Below, piece after piece: positions 33,420 through 60,543 of a stretch of 64,000 bases of DNA. Every line of letters starts with the position of its first letter. Positions within the stretch are counted from its first letter, which is position 1. The DNA lies in contig JAHCRG010000016.1 of the NCBI GenBank assembly GCA_020148045.1, positions 68 through 64,067 of the forward strand, written 5' to 3'. The DNA is from Patescibacteria group bacterium (GTDB lineage: Bacteria > Patescibacteriota > Minisyncoccia > Minisyncoccales > GWA2-38-27). The position numbers and the translations under genes were made by a program. Under the pieces are notes generated by a model that saw only the letters and a program-made list of their open reading frames with translations, ran no database searches and was not told where the DNA came from.

Positions 33420-33427
33420 AATCATTA

Positions 33428-34397: not shown

Positions 34398-34398
34398 C

Positions 34399-34426: not shown

Positions 34427-34461
34427 TTTACTGTTTACTGTTTACTGTTTACTGTTTGCTG
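34427..34461. repeat. tandem heptamer repeat (TTTACTG x4 plus one variant)
   Basis: Read directly, in the convergent spacer between the tRNA-Leu terminator and the hsp20 stop. Confidence 0.85.
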
Positions 34462-34464
34462 TTA

Positions 34465-35061: not shown

Positions 35062-35825
35062 TTTATCTTGCAGACACTTGCCATTTTCTTAAGTTTCCTA
35101 AAGCCGAAGGAAACAAAAAAGGCAAGACCGCTTAAAATAATAACTAAAGAGATAACTGAGGAAGTTAATAAGAGAGAATTTTGACTCGTTAGTCCTTCCT
35201 CAATTCCTATTATAGAAATATTGAAGAGACCATGCAAGAGAGTAGCAATTACTACTCCTTTGATAATTAATTTCAGCCGTTTTTTAGATTCAAAAAAAGA
35301 TAGAGCCAAAAAATAGCCCAGAGTTCCGGAACATAAAGCATGCAAAAAAGTAGCTCCGATAAAACGGAAAGAAGTAATAGCTATGGCTTCACCAAAAAGA
35401 AGAGGCCCTTTTCCGGAAAATAAAACCAGGATATTCTCCAAAGCAGCAAAACCTAAAGCTATAATAATCATATAAAGTATAGTATCTACAGGTTCATCAA
35501 ATTCTGGATTATTTATTACTTTTTCTCTAACAATTAGATATTTAGAGCACTCTTCCACCAAAGCTATTATAAGGAAGTGGTATAAAGCAAAAAATAAAAA
35601 AGGGAAAGTTTTAAACCAGTTTTCGCCAACTATAACTAAAGCTCCGGAAATTCCTATTTCTATCAGGGCAGCTATTATAGCTGCTAGCATTCCATAAAAG
35701 AAAATTTTTAAAATCATTCTGTTTGATTCAGGATGAGCATCTTTTCGCAAGTAAAAGAGAAGCCAGATAACACTGGGAGCTAAACCAAGAAAGATGTAGA
35801 GGAGATAAATCATGATTTTGGCCAT
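35058..35825 (-). CDS. PrsW-family intramembrane protease
   Basis: Polytopic protein with VEECSKYL and HALCSG / HGLFN motifs. Confidence 0.65.
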   Translation of the reverse strand: MAKIMIYLLYIFLGLAPSVIWLLFYLRKDAHPESNRMILKIFFYGMLAAIIAALIEIGISGALVIVGENWFKTFPFLFFALYHFLIIALVEECSKYLIVREKVINNPEFDEPVDTILYMIIIALGFAALENILVLFSGKGPLLFGEAIAITSFRFIGATFLHALCSGTLGYFLALSFFESKKRLKLIIKGVVIATLLHGLFNISIIGIEEGLTSQNSLLLTSSVISLVIILSGLAFFVSFGFRKLKKMASVCKIK

Positions 35826-37855: not shown

Positions 37856-37866
37856 GTAGGTTCATT

Positions 37867-38919
37867 TTAACATATTTTTAAATTAGCATCAGCTTTAATT
37901 TTCTTCCAGGGTTTGCCCTTTCCTTTGAGCCAATTGAAATATCCTGCTATTCCTATCATTACTGCATTGTCAGTACAGAACTTAAAACTTGGAACCTGAA
38001 ACCTGAAACTTAATTTTTCTTTTTGAATTCTTCGTTGGAATTGCTTACGGAGTTCTTTATTGGCTGAAACGCCGCCCCCTAAAATTATGCTTTCCGCTTT
38101 ATAATCTTTTGCTGCTTTGATGGTTTTTTTAACCAGGACATCAATAATTGCTTGTTGAGTTTCTTTACACATTTCCCGAATATATTTCTTACTTTTTCTT
38201 ATCCTTTGGGGCTGGGTTTTAAAATTATACAAAACAGCAGTTTTCAGGCCAGAGAAACTAAAATCATAATTTTTCTGCTTTATCATCGGCCTCGGCAAAC
38301 TGACAGAGGACGGGCCTCTGTTCGTTCTGCTCGCTTCAATGGCGATAGCTGGTCCTCCGGGATATTCAAGGCCTAAAATCTTAGCTACTTTGTCAAAACA
38401 TTCTCCTGCCGCGTCATCCCTTGTTTCTCCAAGAATTTTGTATTTCCCAAAATCTTTCATTAATATCAATTGCGTATGCCCCCCGCTTACCACTAAACAA
38501 ATCGCCGGAAATAACTGTTCTTTGTTCTTTGTTTTTTGTTCTTTGATGAAGTTGGCAAAGATGTGCGCTTCAATATGGTTAACTGGTACAATCGGCAAAT
38601 TCCAGAAATTCGCCAGGGCTTTGGCAAAGTTTACTCCTACCCACAAACAAGGCTCCAAGCCAGGCCCAACGGTTACTGTGATTAAATCAATTTTAGGGTT
38701 TTTTGCTTTCTTTAATGCTTTTTCCAACACAAGAGGCAGATTCTTTTGGTGTTCTCTTTTGGCTAGAGTAGGGTATACTCCTCCCCATTTTTTATGAATT
38801 TCTACTTGCGAAGAAACAATATTTGATAAAATATTAAAACGAGGACGTCTTTGTCCTTTTGCTTCTATAATTGCTACGCAAGTATCATCGCAGGATGTCT
38901 CTATTGATAAAATATTCAT
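37867..38919 (-). CDS. tsaD: tRNA N6-adenosine threonylcarbamoyltransferase TsaD
   Basis: ILSIETSCDDT, VSGGHT, GGVSAN, CTDNAVMI motifs. Two in-frame heptamer-repeat tracts. Confidence 0.9.
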   Translation of the reverse strand: MNILSIETSCDDTCVAIIEAKGQRRPRFNILSNIVSSQVEIHKKWGGVYPTLAKREHQKNLPLVLEKALKKAKNPKIDLITVTVGPGLEPCLWVGVNFAKALANFWNLPIVPVNHIEAHIFANFIKEQKTKNKEQLFPAICLVVSGGHTQLILMKDFGKYKILGETRDDAAGECFDKVAKILGLEYPGGPAIAIEASRTNRGPSSVSLPRPMIKQKNYDFSFSGLKTAVLYNFKTQPQRIRKSKKYIREMCKETQQAIIDVLVKKTIKAAKDYKAESIILGGGVSANKELRKQFQRRIQKEKLSFRFQVPSFKFCTDNAVMIGIAGYFNWLKGKGKPWKKIKADANLKIC

Positions 38920-39187: not shown

Positions 39188-39721
39188 ATGAAACGCTTAA
39201 TTTTGACAATCACAATAGGATTAGTACTGATTGGCATTAACACAGATGTGGCAAATGCACAAGTTAACTGGGGATACATTGCACGGAGTGAAGTGACACG
39301 TCATACCGGATGTTTTCCACGTATAGGTGGCGGCTATAATTTGTCGCGTCTAATACGTGGTGGGTTCGGTGGCCGCCGCTATTATGGCGGATATGGCTGT
39401 GGGCGTGATCGTACGCTCAGGAGAGTAGTAGGTTATGGCGGATTAGCAATGGATGTGCTTCAAATGCTAGACCAGAATTCAGCAAACAATCGAGTATTAA
39501 ACAGTCAGATATCAGCAACCAATCGAACGCTGACTATGGCTGAAAGAGAACAGCGGTTTAGGCATCAACAAATCAGAACCCGGAACAATAGGGTCTTGGT
39601 GAGAAAAGGGTCAATAGCCCAGGGAAACGAAGAACTTCGGAAAGAAGTAGAGAAGTTAAGGCTGGAAGTGGAGAAATTAAATCTCCAGCAAGAAATCAAG
39701 AAAGAAGCGGAAAAACAATAA
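39188..39721 (+). CDS. secreted Gly/Arg-rich protein with coiled-coil tail
   Basis: Signal peptide, GGYG/RR-rich middle, heptad-like E/K tail. Driven by a near-consensus promoter. Confidence 0.4.
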   Translation: MKRLILTITIGLVLIGINTDVANAQVNWGYIARSEVTRHTGCFPRIGGGYNLSRLIRGGFGGRRYYGGYGCGRDRTLRRVVGYGGLAMDVLQMLDQNSANNRVLNSQISATNRTLTMAEREQRFRHQQIRTRNNRVLVRKGSIAQGNEELRKEVEKLRLEVEKLNLQQEIKKEAEKQ

Positions 39722-39814
39722 CACATTACACCCGCAACACAAAGTACCAGGGCGATCCCAAAATATTGGATCGCCTCTTTTTTTTCTAAAAAAAGTGCTA
39801 TTATACAGGATATA

Positions 39815-41359
39815 ATGGAACAAAAAAATTACTATCTTAAAATTGGCAGAGCTACAGATTTAAAAAATCCAAGAGAGAGGTTTCTTTTTAGATTATTTGA
39901 AATTTTTCCCGGAGCCCTATCTTGGGGAATTTTATTTTTAGCTATTTTTCTTTCTTGGAAACAGCCCTTTTGGGTTGCTGTTTTTATTATAATTTTTGTA
40001 ATATTTTGGTTTTTCCGGACGATTTATTTTTCTTTACATCTTTGGTCAGGCTATAAAAAAATGGCAGAGCACGAAAAAATTAACTGGCTTGGAAAACTTA
40101 GTAAATTACTGGCTACAAAGAATTGGAAAACCCTTTATCATTTGATTGTTATTCCAATGTATGAAGAATCTTTAGAAATTGTTCGGGATACTTTTAAAAG
40201 TTTAGAGAATACGAATTATCCGAAAGATAAAATGATTATAGTTTTAGCTTGCGAGGAAAAGGTTAGGGGCTCTATAGAAAAGACAGTTAAAGAAATTGAA
40301 AAAGAATTTAGCTCAAAATTTTTTAAATTTTTAGTCACCTGGCATCCAGCTAATTTACCGGGCGAAATCGCAGGTAAGGGTTCAAATGAAACCTGGGCAA
40401 CTAAAAAAGCAAAAGAAGAGATTATTGACTCGCTGAAAATCCCTTATGAAAATATAATTTTTTCCTCTTTTGATGTTGATACCTGTGTTTTCCCAAAATA
40501 TTTTAGTTGTCTGACTTACCACTATTTAACTTCGGAAAAACCAACTAAAACCAGTTTTCAGCCAATCCCCCTTTTTGTCAATAATATCTGGCAAGCCCCG
40601 GCGATTTCCCGAGTTTTTTCTTTTTCCTCAAGCTTCTGGCATGCTATGAATCAGGAAAGGCCGGAAAAACTGGTAACCTTTTCCTCTCATTCAATGAGTT
40701 TTAAGGCATTAGTTGATGTTGATTTTAAGCAAACAAATGTTGTTTCAGACGACTCAAGAATTTTCTGGCAATGCTTTTTGAAACATAATGGAGATTACCG
40801 AGTTCAACCCTTATACTACCCAATTTCTATGGATGCTAATGTAGCGAAAAGTTTTTTTAGAACTTTGTTTAATATTTTTCGGCAGCAAAGAAGGTGGGCT
40901 TATGGAGTGGGGGATATCGCCTATTTTCTCTTTGGCTTTTATAAAAATAAAAAAATCCCTTTTCTTAAAAAACTTTCTTTGGGACTTGAATTGATTGAAG
41001 GGCATCTTTCTTGGGCTACTACTAGTATTATAATTTTTGTATTGGGTTGGCTTCCCCTAACTTTGGGAGGACCTGAGTTTTCTCACACCTTAATTTCTTA
41101 TAATTTACCAAAGATAATCAGCCGACTTATGACTTTAGCTATGATTGGTTTATTAAGTTCTATTTATTTGAGTTTTCTTTTGCTTCCGCCCAAACCTCCA
41201 GAGTATGGTCGCTTTAAGTATTTAGTTTTTATTTTTGGCTGGCTTCTATTCCCTATAATGATGATATTTTTTACTGCCCTTCCAGCTCTGGACGCCCAAA
41301 CCCGTTGGCTGCTGGGAAAATATATGGGCTTCTGGGTTACTGAAAAAGTTAGGAAGTAG
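39815..41359 (+). CDS. membrane-embedded processive GT2 glycosyltransferase (cellulose/chitin-synthase-like)
   Basis: N- and C-terminal TM bundles. FDVDT (DxD) and RQQRRWAYG (QxxRW) motifs. Confidence 0.6.
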   Translation: MEQKNYYLKIGRATDLKNPRERFLFRLFEIFPGALSWGILFLAIFLSWKQPFWVAVFIIIFVIFWFFRTIYFSLHLWSGYKKMAEHEKINWLGKLSKLLATKNWKTLYHLIVIPMYEESLEIVRDTFKSLENTNYPKDKMIIVLACEEKVRGSIEKTVKEIEKEFSSKFFKFLVTWHPANLPGEIAGKGSNETWATKKAKEEIIDSLKIPYENIIFSSFDVDTCVFPKYFSCLTYHYLTSEKPTKTSFQPIPLFVNNIWQAPAISRVFSFSSSFWHAMNQERPEKLVTFSSHSMSFKALVDVDFKQTNVVSDDSRIFWQCFLKHNGDYRVQPLYYPISMDANVAKSFFRTLFNIFRQQRRWAYGVGDIAYFLFGFYKNKKIPFLKKLSLGLELIEGHLSWATTSIIIFVLGWLPLTLGGPEFSHTLISYNLPKIISRLMTLAMIGLLSSIYLSFLLLPPKPPEYGRFKYLVFIFGWLLFPIMMIFFTALPALDAQTRWLLGKYMGFWVTEKVRK

Positions 41360-48249: not shown

Positions 48250-48522
48250 ATGGCTGTTAAATTTATTAAAGAAAGAAAAAAACAAAGGTATTTAATTATA
48301 GGTTTTGGGATAATGCTTGTAGCTATTAGTATTGTTTTGTGGTCAGGATATTTTAAAAAGGAAGAGCCTATCGCTCCTCCAGTTTCGGTCATTCCTCTTA
48401 GAGAAATAAAAATAAATTTTGAAGTTTTAGAAAATCCGTTCTTGAAAGAACTTCAACCTTTTGTAGAGATTTCTCCCTTTGTAGGTGAAAAGGGACGAGA
48501 GAATCCATTCTTACCGTATTGA
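48250..48522 (+). CDS. small bitopic membrane protein of the pilMNO operon
   Basis: One TM helix. Its stop codon forms the base of the 27-bp hairpin preceding pilB. Confidence 0.4.
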   Translation: MAVKFIKERKKQRYLIIGFGIMLVAISIVLWSGYFKKEEPIAPPVSVIPLREIKINFEVLENPFLKELQPFVEISPFVGEKGRENPFLPY

Positions 48523-48610
48523 AACTTGAAACTTGAAACTTGAAACATTATTGATTGATAAGAATGTTTTCAAAATAAAATAAGTTTTAAGTTTTAAGTT
48601 TTAAGTTTCA
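48520..48610 (+). repeat. 27-bp hairpin of heptamer words (GAAACTT)n / (GTTTTAA)n spanning from stop codon to start codon
   Basis: 48520-48546 pairs base-for-base with 48584-48610: 24 Watson-Crick pairs plus 3 G-U pairs. 37-nt loop. Confidence 0.85.
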
Positions 48611-50331
48611 TGACATTAGTTCAGCAATTAGTTAAAAAAGGGGCATTGGAAAAGTCAAAGGCTACTGCCCTGGAATACGAAATCAAGACTTCCGGACGAA
48701 GAGAAGAGGAGGTAATCTTAGAAAAAAGAATAGTTTCTGAGGATTTTCTATTTGGTTTAAAAAGCGAAAGCCTAAAAATACCTCTAAAGATAGTTTCTCC
48801 TAGAGAGGTTCTCTTGAAAGTTTTAGAAACAATCCCTGAGGAATCAGCCAAATATTACCGGATGATACCTTTAACCAAAGAAGACAGTCGTTTGGAGATA
48901 GGAATGGTTTATCCTGAGGATTTGAAAGCTCGAGAGGCCTTGGAGTTTTTAGCTCGCCAAAACAAATTTAGCTACCGGATTTTCTTAATTACCTTAACGA
49001 ATTTTAACGAACTTTTAAAGAAATACCGGACCCTAAGGAAAGAAGTAACCAGGGCTTTGGAAGAATTAGAGACCGAACTCAAAGTAGAGAAGGTTAAAAA
49101 GGTTGGAATAGCTGAGGTTGAAAGAATGGTAGAGGAAGCCCCGATTTCAAAAGTGGTGGCAGTTATATTAAGACACGCTGTTGATGGAAATGCTTCTGAT
49201 ATTCATATTGAGCCGGGCAGGGAAAAATTACGAGTCAGATTCCGATTAGACGGCGTATTACATGCCAGTATTTTTTTACCCCTTAGAATTCTTCCTGCCG
49301 TAGTAGCCAGGGTTAAAATCCTTTCTAATCTAAAAATAGATGAGACCCGAGTTCCCCAAGATGGCCGATTTTCTACTAAAATTGAGGATAGAGGTATTGA
49401 TTTTCGGGTTTCTACTTTTCCAACTACCTTGGGAGAAAAAGTAGCAATAAGAATTTTAGACCCTGGTCAAAGGAAAGTGGAATTTAAAGAACTGGGGATA
49501 ACTGGAAGAAATCTTAAAGTAATAGAAAAAGCATTGAAAAAACCTTATGGGATGATTTTAGCTACCGGCCCGACAGGTTCAGGTAAAACCACTACCCTTT
49601 ATGCTGTTTTAGGACTTTTTAATAAAGAAGAGGTAAATATAATGACTCTGGAAGACCCGGTAGAATATTTTATGGAAGGAGTTAACCAATCTCAGGTAAA
49701 ACCGGAAATTGGCTATAGTTTTGCTAACGGTCTTCGCTATACTTTAAGACAGGACCCTGATATTTTAATGGTAGGAGAGATTAGAGATGAAGAAACTGCC
49801 TCTTTAGCTATCCATGCAGCTTTAACCGGGCATATCCTGCTTTCTACCTTACATACGTCAAATACTCTTGGAGTAATCCCAAGATTGGTTGATATGGGGA
49901 TACAGGCATTTTTAATCCCCCCTACTTTGAGTTTGGCTCTTGCTCAAAGGTTAGTAAGAAAGCTTTGTCCTCATTGTAAAAGAAAGGTGAAAGCAAATGA
50001 AGAAGCAAGAAAATTACTTTTGGAAGAAATAGAAAAGTTTCCGTCAACTATTAAAAAGAGCGTTGGGCCGACCAAAACCCTTTATGTTCATGAGCCAGTG
50101 GGTTGTAAAAGGTGTAATAATGTAGGTTATTCCGGGCGAATTGGAATTTTTGAAATTTTGGAAATGACTGACCGGCTCGGAGAAGTAATTTTAAAAGAGC
50201 CCTCTGAAGCTAAAATTCAAGAAGAAGCTAAAAATCAAGGAATGATAACAATGAAACAGGATGGAATATTAAAAGTTTTGGAAGGTACTACATCTATTGA
50301 GGAAGTGCTGAGAGTGGCCGAAGAGAAGTAA
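48610..50331 (+). CDS. pilB: type IV pilus extension ATPase PilB (GspE family)
   Basis: Walker A GPTGSGKTT, Asp/His boxes, tetracysteine CPHC...CKRC, N-terminal MshEN-like domain. Confidence 0.95.
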   Translation: MTLVQQLVKKGALEKSKATALEYEIKTSGRREEEVILEKRIVSEDFLFGLKSESLKIPLKIVSPREVLLKVLETIPEESAKYYRMIPLTKEDSRLEIGMVYPEDLKAREALEFLARQNKFSYRIFLITLTNFNELLKKYRTLRKEVTRALEELETELKVEKVKKVGIAEVERMVEEAPISKVVAVILRHAVDGNASDIHIEPGREKLRVRFRLDGVLHASIFLPLRILPAVVARVKILSNLKIDETRVPQDGRFSTKIEDRGIDFRVSTFPTTLGEKVAIRILDPGQRKVEFKELGITGRNLKVIEKALKKPYGMILATGPTGSGKTTTLYAVLGLFNKEEVNIMTLEDPVEYFMEGVNQSQVKPEIGYSFANGLRYTLRQDPDILMVGEIRDEETASLAIHAALTGHILLSTLHTSNTLGVIPRLVDMGIQAFLIPPTLSLALAQRLVRKLCPHCKRKVKANEEARKLLLEEIEKFPSTIKKSVGPTKTLYVHEPVGCKRCNNVGYSGRIGIFEILEMTDRLGEVILKEPSEAKIQEEAKNQGMITMKQDGILKVLEGTTSIEEVLRVAEEK

Positions 50332-50337
50332 TGATCA

Positions 50338-50406
50338 ACGCAAGATTAAAGGCAAGATTAACACAAGATAAAATAATCTGCGTTAATCGTGTTAAAAATC
50401 TTGCGT
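50338..50406 (+). repeat. long imperfect hairpin between pilB and the receiver gene
   Basis: Perfect outer 10-bp stem ACGCAAGATT (50338-50347) / AATCTTGCGT (50397-50406). Inner CAAGATTA-type words pair partly. Confidence 0.7.
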
Positions 50407-50417
50407 AAATCAAATTT

Positions 50418-50783
50418 GTGAAACAAATTTTATTAGTTGAAGACGACCCATTCTTGGTAGAGATTTATACTACCAAACTCAAAGAGGCTGGATTTTCTGT
50501 AGAGGTAGCTACTGATGGAAACGAGTGTTTAAAAAAAATGAAAAAGAAATCTCCTGACCTCTTACTTTTAGATGTTGTTTTGCCCAGTTTTAATGGTTGG
50601 GAAATTCTTAGAGAAATTAAAAAAGATAATAAATTAAACAGTTTAAAAGTAATTATTCTTTCTAATCTTGGCGAGAAAGAAGAGATAGAAAAAGGATTAA
50701 AACTTGGAGCAGTAAGATATTTAGTAAAAGCCCACTACAGCCCAAGCGAAGTAGTGGAAGAGATTAAAAAGATACTTAAGTAA
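50418..50783 (+). CDS. single-domain response regulator embedded in the pil operon
   Basis: Receiver motifs VEDD, DLLLLDVVLP, SNLG, K. GTG start. Paralogous to 871..1239. Confidence 0.9.
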   Translation: MKQILLVEDDPFLVEIYTTKLKEAGFSVEVATDGNECLKKMKKKSPDLLLLDVVLPSFNGWEILREIKKDNKLNSLKVIILSNLGEKEEIEKGLKLGAVRYLVKAHYSPSEVVEEIKKILK

Positions 50784-50789
50784 ATTTCT

Positions 50790-51857
50790 ATGAACTACTC
50801 ATCTTTATTAAAAGAACTTCTTAGTGCGACCCTTACCCAGAAGGCGTCGGATTTACATATTTCAGTTGGTCATCCCCCGGTTTTACGAATAGGCGGCAGA
50901 TTAGTCTTTTTAGTTAGAAGGAAAAAAGTTTCCCCAGAAGATTCTAAGGGACTTGCTTTTGAATTAATGACCGAAAAACAGCAAGAAAGATTTCTTAAAA
51001 ACAAAGAGATTGATTTTTCTTACAATTTTGAAGGAAAAGCCAGATTTAGGATTAATATTTTTTATCAGAGAGGAGATATTTCTTCTGCTCTTCGTTTAAT
51101 CCCGGCTAAAATTCCCACCGTTGAAGAATTAAATCTTCCCCCGATTTTACATGAGTTTATTAGACCTTCTCAGGGGTTTGTTTTGGTTACCGGTCCTTCC
51201 AGCCAGGGAAAATCTACTACTTTAGCTGCTTTGGTTGACGAGGTAAATCATACCAGGGCTGTTCATATAATTACGGTTGAGGATCCCATTGAATATGTTT
51301 TTGAGGATGACAGGTCAATTATTGACCAGAGGGAGCTGGGCCGAGATACTTTAAGTTTTGCCAAGGCATTAAAATCTACTTTTCGTCAGGACCCGGACGT
51401 AATTATGGTAGGGGAAATGAGGGACCCTGTGACTATCTCTACTGCTATTACTGCAGCTGAGACAGGCCACTTAGTTTTAGCTACCTTGCATACTAATTCA
51501 GCTTCTCAAAGTATTCATCGAATTGTTGATACCTTTCCCGGTGCCCAACAGGGCCAAATTCGAGCTCAACTTTCAGGGTCTTTGCTTGGAGTAGTTTCTC
51601 AAAGATTAGTGCCTAGAATTAAAGGAGGATTAATACCTGCCTGTGAAATAATGATGAATACGCCGGCTATAGCCAATTTAATACGGGAAAATAAAATTCA
51701 TGAAATGCCTTTAGTTATTGAAACCTCAGCTGAAATAGGAATGGTTTCTTTAAATAGGTATTTGGCTAATTTAGTCAGGGCAAAGGAAATTGCCTTAGAT
51801 ACTGCCCAAAATTATTCCTTAAATCCAGCTGAATTGAGAGGCCTCGTTAGGAGATAA
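50790..51857 (+). CDS. pilT: type IV pilus retraction ATPase PilT
   Basis: ASDLHI, Walker A GPSSQGKST, GEMRD, ATLHTNSA. Confidence 0.95.
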   Translation: MNYSSLLKELLSATLTQKASDLHISVGHPPVLRIGGRLVFLVRRKKVSPEDSKGLAFELMTEKQQERFLKNKEIDFSYNFEGKARFRINIFYQRGDISSALRLIPAKIPTVEELNLPPILHEFIRPSQGFVLVTGPSSQGKSTTLAALVDEVNHTRAVHIITVEDPIEYVFEDDRSIIDQRELGRDTLSFAKALKSTFRQDPDVIMVGEMRDPVTISTAITAAETGHLVLATLHTNSASQSIHRIVDTFPGAQQGQIRAQLSGSLLGVVSQRLVPRIKGGLIPACEIMMNTPAIANLIRENKIHEMPLVIETSAEIGMVSLNRYLANLVRAKEIALDTAQNYSLNPAELRGLVRR

Positions 51858-51858
51858 T

Positions 51859-53064
51859 ATGAAATTTAACTATCAAGCGAGAGATGAAACAGGAGAAATT
51901 CAGTCAGGGGTTGTGGAAGCTTCTAACCGAGAGGCTGCTTTTAATGTTTTAAAAACTCACGGGCTTTACGTAACTGCTTTAGAAGAAATAACAGCTGTTC
52001 CTATTTATGCTAGAAAATTGAAAATTTTCGAGAGAGTTACCAAAAAAGACATTGTCCTTTTCTCTCGGCAAATATCAATTATGTTCAAATCCAAGGTGCC
52101 GGTAGTTGAGACCCTCCAGACCATTGCTAAGCAGACAAGAAAATCTACCCTCAGGGAGAAAATTTTAAAAATAGCCGGGAAAGTGGAAGGAGGAACACCT
52201 CTTTCTGGGGCCCTCAATATTTATCCAAAACTTTTTTCTCCTTTTTATATTAATATGGTGAAGTCCGGTGAGGCCTCTGGTAAACTGAGCGATGTTTTTA
52301 TGTATTTAGCTGATTATTTGGAAAGAGAGCATTCTTTTCACGGAAAAGTAAAAGGGGCACTGGTCTATCCTTTTTTTATTTTATTTGTTTTTTTAGCGGT
52401 GGTCACAATAATAATGGTTTATGTTATTCCTCAACTAGCCGAGGTTTTAAAAGAAACCGAGCAAGAGCTTCCTTTAGTTACCCGGGTAGTAATGGCAATT
52501 TCAGATTTCTTGAAAACGCAAGGCATAATCGCAGCTTTAATTTTTCTTGGCTTAATAGTTGCTCTTGTCCGATTTGTAAGAAGTAAAGCGGGAAAAAAGT
52601 TTTTTGATAGAAACTTACTAAAATTACCTTTATTAGGTGGTTTCTTAAAAAAACTTTATCTTGCTCGTTGCGCTTTAAATCTTTCTACTTTAATTTCTGG
52701 AGGTCTTCCTATAGCTCAGGCCTTAGAAATTACTGGCGAGGTAGTGGGTAATAACCTTTATAAAGAAGTTATTCTTAAAACCAGGGACGAAGTTAAAAGA
52801 GGAGAACCAATAAGCTCAGTTTTGGAGAGATATCCCAACCTTATCTTCCCTCTTTTTTATCAAATGGTAATGGTGGGAGAAAAAACAGGTACTTTAGATT
52901 CTTCTTTAATGAATGTGGTAGAGTTTTATCAGAGGGACGTAGACCGGGCCTTAGATGGTTTTATAAAACTTCTTGAACCAATCTTTATTATACTTTTGGG
53001 AGGAGTGGTAGCTGGTTTAATGGGAGCAGTTTTAATGCCCCTTTACTCAATTGGAGTCGTATAG
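51859..53064 (+). CDS. pilC: type IV pilus platform protein PilC
   Basis: Duplicated GspF domains and three TM helices. Confidence 0.9.
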   Translation: MKFNYQARDETGEIQSGVVEASNREAAFNVLKTHGLYVTALEEITAVPIYARKLKIFERVTKKDIVLFSRQISIMFKSKVPVVETLQTIAKQTRKSTLREKILKIAGKVEGGTPLSGALNIYPKLFSPFYINMVKSGEASGKLSDVFMYLADYLEREHSFHGKVKGALVYPFFILFVFLAVVTIIMVYVIPQLAEVLKETEQELPLVTRVVMAISDFLKTQGIIAALIFLGLIVALVRFVRSKAGKKFFDRNLLKLPLLGGFLKKLYLARCALNLSTLISGGLPIAQALEITGEVVGNNLYKEVILKTRDEVKRGEPISSVLERYPNLIFPLFYQMVMVGEKTGTLDSSLMNVVEFYQRDVDRALDGFIKLLEPIFIILLGGVVAGLMGAVLMPLYSIGVV

Positions 53065-53066
53065 AA

Positions 53067-53145
53067 TCTTGAAACTTATAACTTGAAACCTATTTCAAAT
53101 CATCGTGAAACTGTGACATAAAATTTCAGGTTATAAGTTTTAAGA
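53067..53145 (+). repeat. 22-bp hairpin of heptamer words between pilC and the 1387-aa gene
   Basis: 53067-53088 pairs with 53124-53145: 20 Watson-Crick pairs plus G71-U41 and U83-G29 wobbles. Confidence 0.8.
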
Positions 53146-53182
53146 AGTATGACTATGGAAATTACTCCCAAAGGAAAAATTC

Positions 53183-56100
53183 ATGAGGACTAAACCAATA
53201 ACAGTTATTTTGGTGAGTGTAGTAGCACTATTGATAACAGTGTCTGTGTTGGCTAATGAGGAGCTACCAGAATTAGAACCATTAATGCCAGGAAGAATAG
53301 AGGGAAGTGGTATCTATTTTAAAATTGAAGATAGCGAATACCTTAACCTTGTTCTAAAAAGCAACGAGGAAATAAAAGTAGTTTTAGAGTCAATTCCAAG
53401 AATGATAAGTCTGGAGATTGAAGCTACCTTTTCTGCTTCTTCCACTCTCTTAACTATCGAGGGGTTAGAACCAAACAAAACCTATTATAAATATCAAGAC
53501 AGCTACAAAAACGAAGCTGTTTTTATTTCGTCTGAAAATGGAAGTTATAGCTGGACCCAAGATTTAACCAAATCCCATCACATCTGGATTCAAGAAGGAA
53601 GAGGAACAATATTTATTAATACAGATACTATATTAACTTCTGATTTGAGTGAGAGCGTAGAAATAACTGCTGACAATATTAGTTTGGATTGTAATGGTCA
53701 TAGTATAACTGGTTCCAGCACAGGGTACGGAGTTTATTTGAACAATAGAAAAGGCGTTACCATTAAAAATTGTAATCTTACCAATTTCTCTTATGGCATT
53801 TTTTTATACTCCTCTTTGAATATTGAGATTGATAAAAACGATATATCAAATGCAAGGTATGGCATAAGACTTGATTATTCCCCAAATAACAAATTAACCA
53901 ATAATATTGCCAGTTCAAATATTTATAGCGGAATATGTTTGATGCGCTCAGGTGATAACATCTTAATTGACAATACGGCTAACTTAAATAAAAAACATGG
54001 AATATTCTTGTGGGAAGATTCTTCTCATGAATATACTAATGATAATACCTTAACCAATAATACCGTAAACTCCAATGATGACTATGGAATATTTTTGTAC
54101 AACTCTTGCAACAATACTCTCACAAACAATAAAGTTGCTAATAATAATCATGGATTAGTAGTAGATTCAGCTTCTTATAATAATACATTAACCGGTAACT
54201 TAGTAAGCTCAAATAATTATGGGATATGGTTGCTTAGAGGTGCACGGAACAATACCTTAACTAATAACACAGCTTCTGATAACCATTATTATGGCATCTA
54301 CTTATGGTGGCGCATTTCAAACAGTCAGATTAACAACAACATATTATCGAATAACGGAGTTGGCATCTACCTGGGTAATTCCTCGGACAACAGTATCTAT
54401 CACAATAATTTTATAAATAATTGGCACCATCAAGCTATTATTGATCATCGGGGTGTTAATAACCTTTTTGACGATGGCTACCCATCTGGAGGGAATTACT
54501 GGTCAGATTATATTGGAGTAGATTTATACTCGGGTCCAAATCAAGACGAGCCCGGAGGCGATGGAATGGGTGATAGTCTTTATACTTTCCTTGGTGGAGA
54601 AGATAGATATCCGTTTATGGAGGAGAGTGGATGGGGGGTGCCTCCGGTTCCAAGTTACAATGTTGCTGTGATTTTAGCTGAACCGAATAATATTAGTCAT
54701 GATTCTTCATCGACTTCCGCTCAACCCTGTAAACTTCTTCCTGAGAAAACTTATCCAAATGGTCGTAGTAAAGAGTATTACCAAGACTTAGTTTATTGCG
54801 TTGCCGATTATAACAAAGAAAATTCTTTTGAAACAATCGATTTAGATTTTGAGATTTTTGATGATAATGGTAATTGGTTTAAAACAGATAAAAATGAACA
54901 AGATTATTTGGGCAAAGAACATGAATTTGTTGCCGAAGCTATAGATTTAGCAACGGATAAAGGCGTTGATTTATCTGATAAGGATATAATTATTGTTATT
55001 CATTCAGGGGAAGCTGCTAGAACAAAAGAAGATATAGGCAAAAAACTGATTACCATGACTTGGGGGCTTATATCTCAACCATTAGAATATCCTCCTTATA
55101 AAATTATAGTTGCTGAAGATGATTTTGTTGGAGCTTGGGCTCACGAAATTGGACATATTATTGGAGCATTAATAACACCCCAAAACACAATAACACCCGA
55201 CCTTTATAAAATGGGAAACGTGGGGAAATGGGATGTTATGGCTATGGGCTCTCGGAATGATGATGGAAAGAACCCGCCGTATATGAGCTCTTATACAAAA
55301 GAATTTCTCCAATGGTTAAATTATGATATTCATCCCAAATCTGCTTATGGTGAATACTGGATAAATTCTTTAGAAACAAGTAAGTCCGGAGATGGTGTTT
55401 TTAGATATAATTTAAGCGATGATACAGATGATCTTTCGCCAAAATATTATATTTTAGAAGGACGAAACAGAAACTTAGAAACTTGGGACTCTTCTTTACC
55501 AGAAGAAAAAGCACTTGTTCTTTATAAAGTTGATACCAGAAATTATCCAGAATATGGCTATGCCCCAGATGGTGTAATGAATAATCAGTATCGAACGATT
55601 GATATTCCATTTTTTGATAGTATTTTAACCCCTGATGGAGATTCACATTTAGACATGAGAAATCTCGTCTACATTACCGCCCTTTCAGATGAACAAACAG
55701 CCGAGATATATAGAATCAAATCAAAAATAGAAAAAGTAGATTATGATTTCTTTGAAGATAGATTTCGTGGTGTTATTTTAGAACCATCTTCTCAATTTTA
55801 TCAAAAGATTATTCAATATCTTCCTTTTCATCATTATCCATTTAGATTCGAACTTGAATACCGAAAAGCTTTTAGGGAACATGGGGCACTAATAGAACTA
55901 CCACATCCTGATGTGGCAAGGAAACAGATAATTGAGGAAATTTCAGTAATATTGGCTTCCTTTGTTTTATTAAATCTTTTATTGATTTTATTAAAAATAA
56001 AAGTTATTCCTCGTTTGAAATCAGAATCCCGAAAAAGAATAACACAAATTCTCTTAAGAATATTCTGGATTATTTGTATAGTTGTCTTTATTATTTTGCT

Positions 56101-57346
56101 TTATCTATACTTTTTTGAGATGCGTACCCTAGCGGATATTTTTGAATATATTATAGGAACCCCTGGAATAGAAACTTCCACTATTGTAGAGGATATAAAA
56201 GCACTAGAATGGGGGGTAGTAAATTTTTCTTTCGGGTTATTAATTCTTTTTATCCCATTAAGCCTTTCATTGCTATTTATAGATAAAGTAATTATTTCAA
56301 GATGGAAATTAGAAAGAGGAAGGGGGACAATAAAAACAATTTTTAGAATAGTATGGCTAATTACTTTAGTTGTTTTTATTATATTTATTATTTGTTTTGC
56401 CCTACCAAAAATATCTTTTAGTAGAGAAATAGAGGAGTCCAATACCAATACTAATATTATAAATCCACAACCGAAAGGTCTTTCTGCTCCATTACTACAA
56501 TCTGTTTTTCCCGATCTTGACCTTCATCTTTATTGTGAGGATGGTAAGCATATTGGAATGAATTATGAGACTGGAGAATATGAAATTCAGATATCTGGGG
56601 CGATGGTATCTGGCGATAATCAGGATGCACCAGAGTGGATATTTATTCCTGAAGATATAACTGGCTGTCATTTTGTAGTTTCCTCTTATGATAATCAAAA
56701 ATTCTTAGAGGAAAACCCAGAAATTGCTCAAGAAATAGAAGATACTACTGATGGTTATGATGTTTATGCTCGCTATATTGACCCTGCTACTGATATTTAC
56801 ACCTCAACTATTATTTCAGAAAATATCCAACCCGCTACAGAACTAGAACATCCAATTAGTGGTACTCACGATGTTACTATAGAGCCAGGAATTTTACTTG
56901 CTCGTGTTGATCTTGATCCCGATACCTTAAATCTAAAGAGCAAAGGAAAATGGCTAACAGTTTATATTGAGTTGCCAGTAGATTATGATGTCAATGATAT
57001 TAATTTAGAAAGCATTAAGTTAAACGGCCAAATTCCGATTGAAACAAAGCCAACTGAGATTAGTGATTACGATGGGAATGGTATACCTGATCTAATGGTC
57101 AAATTTGATCAATCAGCTGTTCAGGCTATTCTTGAAATAGGAGAAGAAGTAGAAATAGTAATTACCGGTGAGCTGATTGACGGAAGATTGTTTCAGGGTA
57201 GCGATATTATTAAAGTGATTTCAAAAGGTAATCAAAAAGAGGCTCTGGCTGTAGTAATTTTAGCTTGTTTTGCGGTAGGAGGATTGTTAGTTTATAGACG
57301 GAGATTTAGGAAAATAAATAGAGTTCTTAATGAAAAATCAGAATAA
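53183..57346 (+). CDS. 1387-aa polytopic surface protein: NosD-like parallel beta-helix, M6/InhA-like HExxH metalloprotease, 4-TM block, C-terminal ectodomain, C-terminal TM anchor
   Basis: N-terminal signal/anchor. About 12 N-rich PbH1-type repeats ending GNYWSDY...DGMGD..Y. HEIGH at 55142-55156 followed by GKWDVMAMG. Four hydrophobic helices (about 55930-56420) that look internally duplicated. DYDGNGIPD loop. Terminal TM helix plus RRRFRK. Confidence 0.7.
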   Translation: MRTKPITVILVSVVALLITVSVLANEELPELEPLMPGRIEGSGIYFKIEDSEYLNLVLKSNEEIKVVLESIPRMISLEIEATFSASSTLLTIEGLEPNKTYYKYQDSYKNEAVFISSENGSYSWTQDLTKSHHIWIQEGRGTIFINTDTILTSDLSESVEITADNISLDCNGHSITGSSTGYGVYLNNRKGVTIKNCNLTNFSYGIFLYSSLNIEIDKNDISNARYGIRLDYSPNNKLTNNIASSNIYSGICLMRSGDNILIDNTANLNKKHGIFLWEDSSHEYTNDNTLTNNTVNSNDDYGIFLYNSCNNTLTNNKVANNNHGLVVDSASYNNTLTGNLVSSNNYGIWLLRGARNNTLTNNTASDNHYYGIYLWWRISNSQINNNILSNNGVGIYLGNSSDNSIYHNNFINNWHHQAIIDHRGVNNLFDDGYPSGGNYWSDYIGVDLYSGPNQDEPGGDGMGDSLYTFLGGEDRYPFMEESGWGVPPVPSYNVAVILAEPNNISHDSSSTSAQPCKLLPEKTYPNGRSKEYYQDLVYCVADYNKENSFETIDLDFEIFDDNGNWFKTDKNEQDYLGKEHEFVAEAIDLATDKGVDLSDKDIIIVIHSGEAARTKEDIGKKLITMTWGLISQPLEYPPYKIIVAEDDFVGAWAHEIGHIIGALITPQNTITPDLYKMGNVGKWDVMAMGSRNDDGKNPPYMSSYTKEFLQWLNYDIHPKSAYGEYWINSLETSKSGDGVFRYNLSDDTDDLSPKYYILEGRNRNLETWDSSLPEEKALVLYKVDTRNYPEYGYAPDGVMNNQYRTIDIPFFDSILTPDGDSHLDMRNLVYITALSDEQTAEIYRIKSKIEKVDYDFFEDRFRGVILEPSSQFYQKIIQYLPFHHYPFRFELEYRKAFREHGALIELPHPDVARKQIIEEISVILASFVLLNLLLILLKIKVIPRLKSESRKRITQILLRIFWIICIVVFIILLYLYFFEMRTLADIFEYIIGTPGIETSTIVEDIKALEWGVVNFSFGLLILFIPLSLSLLFIDKVIISRWKLERGRGTIKTIFRIVWLITLVVFIIFIICFALPKISFSREIEESNTNTNIINPQPKGLSAPLLQSVFPDLDLHLYCEDGKHIGMNYETGEYEIQISGAMVSGDNQDAPEWIFIPEDITGCHFVVSSYDNQKFLEENPEIAQEIEDTTDGYDVYARYIDPATDIYTSTIISENIQPATELEHPISGTHDVTIEPGILLARVDLDPDTLNLKSKGKWLTVYIELPVDYDVNDINLESIKLNGQIPIETKPTEISDYDGNGIPDLMVKFDQSAVQAILEIGEEVEIVITGELIDGRLFQGSDIIKVISKGNQKEALAVVILACFAVGGLLVYRRRFRKINRVLNEKSE

Positions 57347-57370
57347 AAATTTGGAAATTAAGTTCCATTA

Positions 57371-57422
57371 AAAACCTAAAACCTGAAACTTTTAAATAAT
57401 ATGTTTTAAGTTTTGGAGTTTT
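57371..57422 (+). repeat. imperfect heptamer-word hairpin (AAAACCT units vs GTTTTAA/GTTTTGG units)
   Basis: Roughly 19 paired positions with 2 mismatches, 2 wobbles and 1 bulge. Lies downstream of the 1387-aa gene. Confidence 0.5.
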
Positions 57423-57528
57423 CCACACCCCTGTTTGATATAGATGTGCTACAATTTAAATAACGGTAACTAAAAAACCTAAAAGGTCGAAGGTTTAATA
57501 ATTAGCAAAGTAAAAAATTAAAATTAAA

Positions 57529-57921
57529 ATGACTAAAAAATATAGAGGATTTACTCTGATTGAATTATTAGTGGTAATTGCTATTATTGGAATTCTTGCC
57601 TCAATCGTTTTGGTTTCTTTAACTACTGCTAGATCCAGGGCTTATGACGCTGAAATAAAGAGTGAATTATCTCAAGTAAGAGCTGATGCAGAAATGTATT
57701 TCATTGATAATGACACATACGTAGCCTATAGTGTGCCAGGCACTTTACTTCCTCCAGATTGCAGTAACGACAGTCTCTATCAAGTTGGCACAAGTGCTAC
57801 AGCATATGCGGCTTGGGCTGGCTTATGTTCAACCACTGCAAACGATTGGTGTGTTGATTCTGCTGGAATGTCTAAAGAAGTAACTGGTGGGGTAACTGCT
57901 GGCGCAACTGTTTGTCCGTAA
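57529..57921 (+). CDS. pilA: type IV major pilin
   Basis: Class III signal MTKKYRG|FTLIELLVVIAIIGILA. C-terminal Cys pair. Followed by a terminator. Confidence 0.85.
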   Translation: MTKKYRGFTLIELLVVIAIIGILASIVLVSLTTARSRAYDAEIKSELSQVRADAEMYFIDNDTYVAYSVPGTLLPPDCSNDSLYQVGTSATAYAAWAGLCSTTANDWCVDSAGMSKEVTGGVTAGATVCP

Positions 57922-57941
57922 AGATATAAAATTTATTTAAT

Positions 57942-57973
57942 CAAAACCCGTTGTTAGCGGGTTTTGGTTTATT
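57942..57973 (+). terminator. terminator after the major pilin gene
   Basis: CAAAACCCG/CGGGTTTTG 9-bp stem followed by GTTTATT. Confidence 0.7.
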
Positions 57974-58022
57974 CACAGCTTATATTATTGGTATCTGAAT
58001 TTATTTCTGTTACAATAAATTA

Positions 58023-58445
58023 ATGAAATCCTTCACTTTAATTGAAGTATTAGTAGTGGTTACTATCATAGCATTACTCATTAGTATTAATTTGGTTGCT
58101 ATTGGCCATTATCAAGATAAGGCTAGGGACACAGCAATTGCAGCTGGTTTGAGCCAAGTAAGAAAAGTGGCAGCAATGATTTATACTGATGAAAATTCTT
58201 ATGAATTTATCTGTGCTGCGGACAACACTCTTAATGATAGCTATCCGGCTCTGAAAATGATTGAAGATGATGTTAATAAATTCACTGGTGAAAACCCTAC
58301 TTGTTATTCTGAAAGAACTGCTTATTGTGTTCAATCATCTTTACTTTCAGCTGGTGGAGGTTATTTCTGCATAGATTCTACTGGGTTTGCCGACAAGATA
58401 GATGGAGATTATTGTACAGGTACTAGTAAAAATTGCTCTCCCTAA
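58023..58445 (+). CDS. pilin-like protein with atypical MKS|FTLIE leader
   Basis: FTLIEVLVV N-terminal helix, but Ser rather than Gly at position -1. An in-frame stop at 57996-57998 precludes a longer leader. Confidence 0.6.
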   Translation: MKSFTLIEVLVVVTIIALLISINLVAIGHYQDKARDTAIAAGLSQVRKVAAMIYTDENSYEFICAADNTLNDSYPALKMIEDDVNKFTGENPTCYSERTAYCVQSSLLSAGGGYFCIDSTGFADKIDGDYCTGTSKNCSP

Positions 58446-58453
58446 AACTTATT

Positions 58454-59245
58454 ATGGGAATTTTTTTTTATCCGATTATTTTTATTTTTGGTTTAGCTGT
58501 AGGTAGTTTTTTGAATTGCGTGATTTACCGGCTTGCCTTTCCAAGGGGCAGGTCTTTTTGTCCCTATTGCAAACACATATTATCTTGGCAAGACCTGATT
58601 CCGGTTTTAAGCTTTTTTATTTTACGAGGCAAATGCCGTTATTGCCTGAAAAAAATATCCTGGCAGTATCCATTAGTGGAGTTAGCTACAGGAATTTTGT
58701 TTATCTTGATATTGAATTATGAATTAGGAATTATGAATTATGAATTTTTTGATTTTAGAACTATTCTTAATTCTTTATTCTTAATTCTTACTTCCTGTTT
58801 TTTAATAATAATTTTTGTTTATGACCTGAAACATTTTATCATCCCCGATAAAATAATCTACCCAGCAATCGTAATTACTTTTTTATATAATTTAATTCTT
58901 AATTCGCAATTCATAATTCATAATTCAATTTTCGCTGCCTTGGGCGCAGCTCTATTTTTTTTATTTATTGTTCTTGTATCCCGGGGTCGCTGGATGGGTC
59001 TCGGCGATGTTAAGTTAGCATTTTTTATTGGTCTTTTTCTTGGCTTCCCCGATATCTTAATTGCCCTATTTTTTGCTTTTCTAATTGGTGCTATAATAGG
59101 AGTAGGACTAATTTTAGCAAAAAGGAAGACCTTAAAAAGCGAAGTGCCCTTCGGACCATTTCTGGTAACCGGCACATTTATTGCTTTATTTTGGGGTCCA
59201 ACAATTATTGATTGGTATCTTAATTTTGTAACCTATAACCTATAA
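58454..59245 (+). CDS. pilD: prepilin peptidase (A24 family)
   Basis: N-terminal CxxC...CxxC. Two Asp motifs (VYDLKHFIIPD, GLGDVKL). Start moved to ATG 58454. Confidence 0.85.
   Translation: MGIFFYPIIFIFGLAVGSFLNCVIYRLAFPRGRSFCPYCKHILSWQDLIPVLSFFILRGKCRYCLKKISWQYPLVELATGILFILILNYELGIMNYEFFDFRTILNSLFLILTSCFLIIIFVYDLKHFIIPDKIIYPAIVITFLYNLILNSQFIIHNSIFAALGAALFFLFIVLVSRGRWMGLGDVKLAFFIGLFLGFPDILIALFFAFLIGAIIGVGLILAKRKTLKSEVPFGPFLVTGTFIALFWGPTIIDWYLNFVTYNL
58714..58746. repeat. heptamer-word arm (GAATTAT units) inside pilD, left arm
   Basis: GAATTAT GAATTAG GAATTAT GAATTAT GAATT. Complementary to 58894-58926 at 29 of 33 positions, plus one wobble. Confidence 0.8.
58894..58926. repeat. heptamer-word arm inside pilD, right arm
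   Basis: AATTCTT AATTCGC AATTCAT AATTCAT AATTC. Confidence 0.8.
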
Positions 59246-59251
59246 CTCATA

Positions 59252-59869
59252 ATGACTTGTTCCACGTTTCACTTAATTGCGAAGCAATTACAAGGAGCGA
59301 AGCGACTGGTTCGTGCTTCAAGTTTCAAGAAGAAGGGGTTTTCTCTAACTGAATTTCTGATAGTAATAAGCATTATTGGTATTTTTTCAGCAATAACTTT
59401 TCCTAATTATCGCTCCACTCAGCAGCAACTTATTCTTCAACGCTCAGCAAGTAAATTAGCCCAGAATATAAGGAAAGTTCAGGAGATGGCAATATCGGCA
59501 AAAGAGTGTCCTCCCTCAATCTGTGGAGGGCCGGGGTCAATAATTCCACCAGGATATGGAATTTATCTGAAAAAAGATGATTTAGATTATTTACTATATG
59601 CTGATGTCAATCCAGCAGCTGGAAATGAAAAATACGATTCTGGCAATGATAAAGTAGTAGAAACTATTCCCCTGGAAACAGGAGTAGAAATAAAGAGTGT
59701 TTCCCCGGCCTCTATGAGCATAAATTTTAAGCCACCTGACCCTGAAGTAAAAATATCTGGAACTGATACTGATGATGCCGCCGAGGCAGTAATTACTCTC
59801 GTCGTTGAAGGTACTTCATTTGAGAAAAAAATTATAGTTAATAAAGCAGGCCTAATTTATGTGGAATAA
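59252..59869 (+). CDS. minor pilin (FimT/GspH-like) with 29-aa leader
   Basis: KKKG|FSLTEFLIVISIIGI prepilin site. No in-frame ATG closer to the site. Confidence 0.65.
   Translation: MTCSTFHLIAKQLQGAKRLVRASSFKKKGFSLTEFLIVISIIGIFSAITFPNYRSTQQQLILQRSASKLAQNIRKVQEMAISAKECPPSICGGPGSIIPPGYGIYLKKDDLDYLLYADVNPAAGNEKYDSGNDKVVETIPLETGVEIKSVSPASMSINFKPPDPEVKISGTDTDDAAEAVITLVVEGTSFEKKIIVNKAGLIYVE
59259..59331 (+). repeat. 73-nt module shared by two minor-pilin 5' ends, copy 1
   Basis: 70 of 73 nt identical to 59911-59983. Contains two GCGAAGC mini-hairpin motifs and GTTTCAAGTTTCAAG words. Confidence 0.85.
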
Positions 59870-59910
59870 TAACTTAAAACTTTATTTTTATTCAAAGTTT
59901 CAGGTTTCAG

Positions 59911-59983
59911 GTTCCATGTTTCACTTAATTGCGAAGCAATTACAAGGAGCGAAGCGACTGATTCGTGTTTCAAGTTTCAAGAA
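59911..59983 (+). repeat. 73-nt module shared by two minor-pilin 5' ends, copy 2
   Basis: See copy 1. The remainders of the two genes are dissimilar. Confidence 0.85.
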
Positions 59984-60492: not shown

Positions 60493-60543
60493 ATGTTTAA
60501 ATGTTAGAATGTTAAAATGAGGAAATGTTTAAATGTTAAAATG
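60493..60543 (+). repeat. octamer array: seven ATGs exactly 8 nt apart
   Basis: ATG at 60493, 60501, 60509, 60517, 60525, 60533, 60541. The last is the MNRG|F prepilin start. Confidence 0.85.

Follow-up and report, generated by a model that had tools for sequence, protein, structure and literature searches.

The spacer upstream of pilB, the gene for the type IV pilus assembly ATPase, in a Patescibacteria group bacterium (contig JAHCRG010000016.1) holds an 87-nt element that folds into an uninterrupted 27-bp hairpin, joining the stop codon of the preceding small gene to the pilB start codon. In the 64,000-nucleotide stretch of DNA that was analyzed (hereafter designated the window), we found that both arms of this hairpin are perfect heptanucleotide arrays, that the hairpin is real and statistically striking, and that the element is, by parsimony, a recent gain. 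We tentatively interpret it, with about as much doubt as belief or slightly more, as a young, slippage-born palindrome that may be tolerated since the ribosome terminating on the upstream gene would melt the helix, leaving pilB coupled to that gene.

Sequence and predicted fold of the hairpin at the pilB junction

The small gene (48250–48522, plus strand, 90 amino acids), assigned from the list of open reading frames (ORFs) and its conserved C-terminus, is the fourth of the operon after pilM, pilN, and pilO. Its TGA stop codon (48520–48522) lies within the first heptamer unit of the 5′ arm, and pilB follows on the same strand at 48610–50331. Read directly, positions 48520–48612 comprise TGAAACTTGAAACTTGAAACTTGAAAC, a 37-nt loop, and GTTTTAAGTTTTAAGTTTTAAGTTTCATG, in which the left arm (48520–48546) is T followed by three GAAACTT units and GAAAC, and the right arm (48584–48610) is three GTTTTAA units followed by GTTTC and A. 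Tandem Repeats Finder (TRF) gives both arms as period-7 arrays with 100% matches, (TTGAAAC) × 4.0 at 48519–48546 and (TAAGTTT) × 4.0 at 48581–48608 (plus strand), a make-up that the first-pass annotation of this DNA had not mentioned. On the helix itself, direct reading and an explicit stem finder agreed with that annotation: 27 unbroken pairs, 24 of them Watson–Crick and three G–U (48528/48602, 48535/48595, and 48542/48588), join the two arms, of which the first paired base is the T of the stop codon and the last the A that opens the pilB ATG. The 3′-arm unit is the complement of the 5′-arm unit save for one transition, which accounts for the three G–U pairs, and 5 of the 27 pairs are G–C. 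The A/U-rich loop (48547–48583, plus strand) has the 37-nt length and a weak inner stem, whereas the AACATT/AATGTT stem previously placed in it would borrow AAC (48544–48546) from the main helix and is absent from the minimum free energy (MFE) fold, which instead lengthens the 27-bp helix by 5 bp (TTATT/AATAA) and forms a small stem further in.

As ranked by the explicit stem finder, this stem is the longest of the window on both strands, a sliding 120-nt MFE scan having been swamped by tRNAs and GC-rich regions. In RNAfold calculations, the plus-strand RNA of 48500–48630 reached −37.8 kcal/mol (z-score, −7.0), an energy as low as which was attained by 0 of 200 shuffles, against −22.6 kcal/mol (z-score, −2.6) for the minus-strand RNA of the same region. 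The helix is thus far stronger on the mRNA strand, in keeping with the first-pass annotation, and the strand asymmetry is real for this single instance. Folded as single-stranded DNA, the plus strand gave −19.8 kcal/mol (z-score, −5.5).

Both codons bounding the helix are supported by conserved protein ends. The C-terminal sequence ...GRENPFLPY* of the small protein and the position of its gene are conserved in L001–L012 and L083–L108 (L-numbers denote the related loci compared with the window), and the N-terminal M-x-L-V-Q-Q-L of PilB and its start codon are conserved among relatives, which makes the placement of both codons secure. The small protein matched no family in Pfam or NCBIfam. PilB matches Pfam T2SSE (5e-128), MshEN, and TIGR02538 (7e-163), and its closest relatives are 92% and 84% identical; the window has a GC content of 35% and belongs to a bacterium placed close to Nealsonbacteria/Minisyncoccales within the Patescibacteria (CPR). 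An assembly artefact is unlikely, since the Logan assembly contig SRR10836662, possibly from the same sample, matches base for base across 5.3 kb. This was the single extra contig found by exact-protein look-ups with the small ORF and PilB, and it has no difference in array length. A blastn-short search of the window and 110 related loci with the loop sequence returned the loop itself alone. In Rfam, only tRNAs reached gathering scores over the whole window, and a permissive E-value yielded for the hairpin only matches to plant microRNA precursors (19.8–25.5 bits, against a gathering score of about 90).

Absence of the element from near relatives

The closest comparison is provided by the metagenomic contig L083, which is 93.8% identical to the window over 273 nt upstream and 94.9% over 806 nt downstream, and in which the junction reads TAC TAA AT ATG TCT with a spacer of 2 nt. 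Alignment with L083, L090, and L002 revealed a clean insertion of about 85 nt in the window between conserved flanks. Spacers of 1–3 nt were found in L083, L002, L003, L090, L094, and L096, and those of L002, L003, L004, L090, L094, and L096 together with most of the approximately 60 relatives with informative junctions range from −4 to 20 nt. Since the near relatives have short spacers, the 87-nt element is most parsimoniously placed as a gain on the recent branch leading to the window. No relative examined carries a homologous hairpin, and the homologous spacers of the nearest relatives lack complementary arms. A switch for the pilus motor had been envisaged as one possible role of this hairpin; as a conserved device, such a switch is not supported, given the spacer of 2 nt in L083 between flanks that are 94–95% identical.

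Other lineages have filled the same junction differently, those of the L001 type, L010, L012, L042, L098, and L102 with unrelated hairpins that occupy the full spacer. In L001, L084, and L085, an unrelated 128-nt spacer contains a hairpin ending at the ATG, and in L086 and L087, which belong to the same L001-type lineage, 16 nt of its 3′ arm have gone with no visible compensating change. The difference between L085 and L086 was also considered as a 14-nt indel of two heptamers, a candidate that was rejected on alignment, which gave a 16-nt deletion between ATGTTGAT direct repeats. Heptamer arms occur at the junctions of L010 (CATAACA/TGTTCCA) and L012 (CTACAAA type), a stop-to-start hairpin with a z-score of −8.3 in L042, and non-periodic hairpins in L098 and L102, while L092 and L095 have direct arrays, of AACTTAA-AACTTGA-AATTTGA in the former and of a 9-mer in the latter. 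One step upstream, between pilO and the small ORF, L001 has an insert of about 140 nt (5445–5587 of that locus) with GC-rich hairpins and repeated AACCTTGATTC, where the window has 12 nt; to judge from this comparison, it is a further case of lineage-specific spacer filling.

The native junction sequence also offers a plausible source for the arms. Relatives read TAT TAA AAT ATG there, and one or two transitions would turn TTAAAAT into the 5′-arm unit TTGAAAC or into TTAAAAC, to which the unit of the other arm is complementary. This likeness, together with the direct array of the same family in L092, favors local seeding by slippage. Presumably, the junction supplied a first heptamer that grew into an array by replication slippage, and an intrastrand fold-back or template switch then would have made the inverted arm. 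Heptanucleotide units are the commonest class of long simple sequence repeats (SSRs) in many bacteria and are ascribed to polymerase slippage, according to the account of Mrazek 2007 given in PMC4679880.

Predicted occlusion of the pilB start and its proposed dependence on the upstream ribosome

The operon runs in the order pilM, pilN, pilO, the 90-amino-acid gene, [hairpin], pilB, a receiver-domain gene, pilT, pilC, a gene for a 1387-amino-acid beta-helix protein, pilin genes, and pilD. From pilM to pilB all genes are on the plus strand, and their spacers other than that of the hairpin measure −1 to 12 nt. The sole promoter-like site of the neighborhood lies just 5′ of pilM, and the scans called neither a sigma-70-type promoter in the loop nor a terminator at the hairpin; overall, promoter-like matches were no more numerous in the window than in shuffles (17 versus 17.5). 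A loop promoter of the form TTGATA...TAAAAT was rejected in view of its 15-nt spacing, the absence of a call by the scan, and this parity with shuffles.

In the free mRNA, the predicted unpaired probability is 0.00 over positions −20 to −1 of pilB. Averaged over −20 to +5, it is 0.09, lower than for any other of the 62 genes compared in the window (median, 0.47). The claim that the hairpin buries the Shine–Dalgarno (SD) region therefore stands as far as the initiation region of pilB is concerned but not for an SD sequence, an SD-like motif being found before only 7 of 63 genes of the window. An extended −10-like motif, TGnTAnAAT, is located 6–15 nt 5′ of the ATG of several first genes, for example at 33410, 60502, 58008, 7249, and 39796 on the plus strand and 45918, 37872, and 4333 on the minus strand. 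This spacing and the paucity of SD-like motifs suggest that first genes are leaderless or have very short leaders, and that internal genes are coupled. The 8-mer ATGTTAAA arrays at 60493–60543 and 33366–33413 are tandem copies of this promoter-like motif.

The geometry fits the idea of coupling by termination and re-initiation. A ribosome that halts at the TGA would have to open about 15 bp at the outer end of the helix, and when the corresponding footprint constraint was imposed on the predicted fold, the outer 15 bp were lost, in which the 15 nt leading up to the AUG had been paired. We therefore envisage the following sequence of events. A polycistronic mRNA promoted at pilM would fold the 27-bp helix, sequestering the 20 nt 5′ of the pilB AUG, and independent initiation at pilB should be blocked, given the occluded start and the near absence of SD use in this organism. 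With the 5′ arm starting on the stop codon itself, the ribosome finishing the upstream ORF would melt the outer ~15 bp, setting free the AUG-proximal arm beside the terminating ribosome. In this manner, pilB would be kept coupled to the small gene, as it was at the former 2-nt spacing, by RNA unfolding and possibly also by re-initiation across the helix base. The insertion would then persist owing to its self-complementarity, which preserves the stop–start proximity given by the 2-nt spacers of relatives, and would not have evolved as a regulator.

Lack of sense-strand bias in the G–U pairs

The three G–U pairs had been taken as a sign that the helix was optimized for the plus strand. This is not borne out, as they occupy the same position of three identical units. 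Given their identical position in repeat units that are 100% homogeneous, they represent one substitution, not three, amplified by expansion of the array. Nor did the class as a whole favor wobbles on the sense strand. The ratio of sense G–U to A–C was 28:36 in period-7 hairpins between co-oriented genes, and 37:47 (p = 0.33) in a relaxed survey that included metagenome loci. Moreover, two other hairpins of the window fold better as antisense RNA, namely, those at 1237–1355 (−42.6 versus −28.6 kcal/mol for the sense strand) and 50332–50412 (−33.2 versus −29.8 kcal/mol).

Period-7 inverted pairs between co-oriented genes

A survey of the window and 80 related loci (995 kb) for arrays of at least 2.8 copies showed that the pilB hairpin belongs to a class. 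Period 7 accounted for 50 of the 80 arrays, as compared with 5, 7, and 5 arrays at periods 6, 8, and 9, respectively, and for 12 of the 15 arrays of the window alone. Counts of exact runs at periods 5, 6, 7, and 8 were 3, 1, 7, and 0, and among 30 long hairpins whose arms are periodic, 25 had period 7. A reverse-complement partner within 160 nt was present for 23 of the 50 heptamer arrays, versus 0.5% of control 21-mers, and such inverted partners accompanied 21 of 33 intergenic arrays versus 2 of 17 coding ones. All 23 classifiable period-7 hairpins have co-oriented genes on their two sides (p = 0.009 when tested by gene pairs and 0.0006 when tested by spacer length), and typically (median values) they begin 6 nt past the stop and end 18 nt ahead of the next start. 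Convergent gene ends have none of the 23 and, in the wider survey, a single one of 46. Canonical terminators consisting of a GC-rich stem and a U-tract are present elsewhere in the window (3039–3125, 5916–5965, 39719–39817, and 57919–58025), which marks the heptamer hairpins as a separate kind of object.

Within the window, TRF detected period-7 arrays at about 20 places, with at least 10 different heptamer units. They fall in three clusters (797–1642, 32498–38545, and 48519–59981), none being found between approximately 2 and 32 kb. The sibling hairpins are all on the plus strand. A weak one of the AAACAAG/CTTGTTA family (805–861) lies between histidine-kinase and response-regulator genes, and one of the TAGATAT family (1237–1355) begins at the TAG stop of the response-regulator gene and ends 5 nt short of the fpg GTG. 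Immediately downstream of pilB, a hairpin with arms of ~11-nt period (50332–50412) fills the whole spacer to the response-regulator (receiver-domain) gene, from 1 nt past the stop to 5 nt before the GTG, where L001 has a 16-nt spacer. A hairpin of GAAACTT-type heptamers like those of the pilB element (TCTTGAAACTTATAACTTGAAACCT / AAATTTCAGGTTATAAGTTTTAAGA) at 53067–53145 starts 3 nt past the pilC stop, and the hairpin that follows pilC in L001 is unrelated to it. After the gene for the 1387-amino-acid beta-helix protein, a degenerate hairpin at 57371–57422 pairs two AAAACCT units and GAAAC with GTTTTAA, GTTTTGG, and AGTTTT. A heptamer hairpin between two minor-pilin genes (59871–59915; stop, 59867–59869; in-frame ATG, 59916) contains A–C mismatches on the sense strand. 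The beta-helix (NosD-like) gene at 53183–57346 is thus bracketed by GAAACTT/AAAACCT hairpins (53067–53145 and 57371–57422); in L001, no such gene separates pilC from the pilin gene, and in L002 it is located elsewhere. Dimers of GAAACYTGAAAC number 12 in the window against 1.6 expected, mainly in the pilus region, and also occur in L008, L017, L092, and L112.

Heptamer arrays also lie in frame within coding regions, namely, in gyrA (32498–32534), leuS (36147–36176), tsaD (37985–38009 and 38516–38545), fpg (1610–1642), and pilD (58713–58746, 58763–58794, and 58893–58927), where those of pilD coincide with indels in the comparison with L001 and further relatives. They encode short peptide repeats, such as a 13-letter peptide in GyrA and IKEQKTKNKEQ in TsaD, and may be the product of the same expansion pressure. 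A second palindrome family, AACCCCGTTAGAGGTT...AACCTCTAACGGGGTT, has four matches against 0.48 expected, including 34220–34282 and 34879–34941; one copy is terminator-like and precedes tRNA-Leu, another is inside a minus-strand ORF, and L001 has a comparable ACCCCGTAGAG... hairpin after pilC (10388–10447 of that locus). Fifteen tRNA genes are densely arranged at 21299–44147, among them a tRNA-Ile with the anticodon UAU (26114–26186).

Evaluation of the coupling model and its alternatives

Coupling, as first proposed in the first-pass annotation, is the most plausible consequence of the modeled fold. Several observations nevertheless weigh against a young palindrome tolerated through coupling. 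The arm set free under the footprint constraint is only modestly accessible, with a predicted unpaired probability of 0.20, and the closeness with which the element fits the two codons may mean no more than that the spacer it entered was 2 nt long. Given the uncompensated loss of 16 nt from one arm in L086 and L087, the L001-type helix is, as far as the alignment tells, dispensable there. No selection for the mRNA helix is detectable at the level of base pairs, in view of the lack of G–U excess and of the siblings that fold better as antisense RNA. In addition, structure just past the stop codon correlated negatively with coupling in a screen, as the screen is summarized in PMC12548453.

The strongest rival, which we nonetheless consider unlikely, is that the hairpin serves as an RNase III site, possibly a phase-variable one, at which cleavage would split the pilMNO–small gene mRNA from that of pilB and unmask the pilB start, while slippage would tune the PilB level. 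The operon encodes a surface structure, as is typical of contingency loci, and a repeat-mediated 16-nt indel has occurred in one arm among the L001-type spacers, which are unrelated to that of the window. The 27-bp helix with its 5-bp extension also exceeds the classical RNase III substrate of about 22 bp, and its arms are heptamer SSRs, a property shared with the Haemophilus influenzae hmw1A leader (PMC12721329). Four units per arm are, however, few for a contingency locus, and the sole second contig is identical. The siblings precede housekeeping genes (fpg and response-regulator genes), any RNA-level function is weakened by the class-wide lack of sense polarity, and six-frame translation of the window revealed no rnc gene or signature, a result silent on the rest of the genome. 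That lack of polarity would be expected if the hairpin were instead a neutral or slightly deleterious DNA by-product of slippage and template switching under heptamer-expansion pressure, not yet purged, an explanation to which we attach the same low probability as to RNase III cleavage. It would also account for the absence of the element from a 94–95% identical relative, the fast turnover of the junction among lineages, the 3′-arm loss in L086 and L087, and the expansions that strike the coding regions of the essential genes gyrA, leuS, tsaD, fpg, and pilD. A neutral by-product is harder to reconcile with the fully occluded start of an essential pilus ATPase gene in an SD-poor genome, which needs something to open the helix, with the far more frequent pairing of intergenic than of coding arrays, with the confinement of the hairpins to co-oriented spacers, and with the equal copy number of two separately homogenized arms; collectively, these four features suggest that selection filters on the helix.

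The remaining explanations are far less probable. Recognition of the DNA by a protein, with the heptads serving as an operator or iteron or the palindrome as a cruciform, appears very unlikely. Heptad arrays are known as regulator sites, such as those of ToxR at the TTTTGAT heptads of ctxAB (10.1101/2021.05.14.444153), the GAAACYTGAAAC dimers are enriched and recurrent, and two response-regulator genes adjoin hairpins; but these regulators are receiver-only, with no DNA-binding domain detected, the heptamer units vary by site and genome, the element is operon-internal with no promoter called in or near it, and relatives manage without it. Scarcely more can be said for a terminator or attenuator cutting pilB transcription relative to that of pilMNO, which we rate slightly lower still: a strong hairpin right after a stop codon with a U-rich 3′ arm would suit such a role, yet the scan did not call it, the stem has 5 G–C pairs, ATGACATTAG comes next in place of a U-tract, terminators of canonical build occur at four other sites of the window, and period-7 hairpins are nearly absent from the convergent ends where terminators concentrate. 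We give the least credence to insertion of a miniature mobile element resembling a miniature inverted-repeat transposable element (MITE), a repetitive extragenic palindromic (REP) sequence, or attC. Its palindromic ends, the clean insertion relative to relatives, and the related heptamer arms at other sites are as such an element would have them, although the loop is unique, with no second copy in the window or the 110 loci, neither phage records nor Rfam families gave a match, no target-site duplication is compatible with the conserved ATG, the arms resemble the native junction (TTAAAAT in relatives), and the flanks are syntenic pilus genes, not cassettes. An integron attC site in particular was rejected on reading the sequence, which has no GTTRRRY core and is set among syntenic genes.

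We also considered a broader proposal, in which heptamer palindromes act as general operon punctuation in SD-less Patescibacteria, with leaderless first genes, coupled internal genes, re-initiation across the stem base, and heptamer expansion driven by the transcribed hairpin itself, in line with what the hmw1A work suggests for RNase III-dependent changes in repeat number. It is improbable, more so than RNase III cleavage or neutrality, though not to the degree of an operator, a terminator, or a mobile element. If it held, these hairpins would represent a bacterial analogue of shunting and a previously undescribed class of self-propagating, function-compatible intergenic elements. At the pilB locus itself, the idea of a conserved pilus-motor riboswitch is removed by the element-free relative with flanks 95% identical. 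The class-level pattern is a more interesting result than the single hairpin and supplies natural replicates both for why heptamers are favored among long bacterial SSRs and for how operon-internal genes initiate in SD-less bacteria.

Comparison with known systems

Hairpins between co-transcribed genes that punctuate or stabilize mRNA are represented by the RNase III sites of T7 early mRNA and by the enterobacterial REP sequences and bacterial interspersed mosaic elements (BIMEs). The pilB element resembles them in position. It differs from the T7 sites, which have a conserved irregular structure, in not being conserved, and from REPs, which are dispersed copies of one consensus moved by REP-associated tyrosine transposases (RAYTs), in not being multi-copy. 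An ORF that stops at the foot of a stem, with translation resumed at the other foot, is found in shunting on the cauliflower mosaic virus (CaMV) 35S leader and in bypassing in T4 gene 60; the likeness to these is purely geometric, as they are eukaryotic or phage-specific and have defined cis signals, and we know of nothing comparable demonstrated for cellular bacterial operons.

The coupling that we tentatively propose has its nearest counterparts in coupling by RNA unfolding, for which rpmI–rplT (at +52 nt), genes VII and IX of phage f1, and the coat and lysis genes of MS2 have been reviewed (PMC12548453). As modeled, the pilB junction would share with them co-oriented ORFs and a downstream start locked in structure within reach of upstream ribosomes. 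Their structures are, however, conserved, irregular, and partly coding, whereas the pilB helix is perfect and built of repeats, fills the whole spacer, is missing in near relatives, and occurs in a host nearly devoid of SD sequences. With regard to the repeats, the long heptamer SSRs of other bacteria (Mrazek 2007, as cited in PMC4679880), the cyanobacterial short tandemly repeated repetitive (STRR) sequences, and the TAACTGA repeats of Beggiatoaceae are likewise of period 7 and intergenic just before start codons, with some in frame, and the TAACTGA case also involves spacers without canonical ribosome-binding sites. All of these repeats form direct arrays in which a genome or family reuses a single conserved unit, in contrast to the varying units and mostly inverted pairs described here. 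In short, the element unites a heptanucleotide SSR with an mRNA hairpin built from such repeats and with putative coupling by unfolding, each of a kind already known, and the class pattern of period-7 inverted pairs between co-oriented genes of Patescibacteria appears to be undescribed in the literature searched.

The closest single parallel is the 5′ untranslated region (5′-UTR) of hmw1A in H. influenzae, where a hairpin containing a heptamer SSR is cut by RNase III and expression is raised (PMC12721329). In both systems, a transcribed heptanucleotide SSR 5′ of a gene for a surface structure forms an arm of a long predicted mRNA hairpin, long enough for RNase III. The pilB element is operon-internal and flush with a stop and a start codon, has heptamer arrays in both arms, and has 4 units in each, whereas the hmw element is in a promoter-proximal 5′-UTR, pairs its repeats with a G-rich region, and has at least 10 units. 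The class-level result also ties in with the dynamics of heptamer repeats in Haemophilus, where a shift in repeat number at hmw1A requires the RNA hairpin as well as RNase III (PMC12721329).

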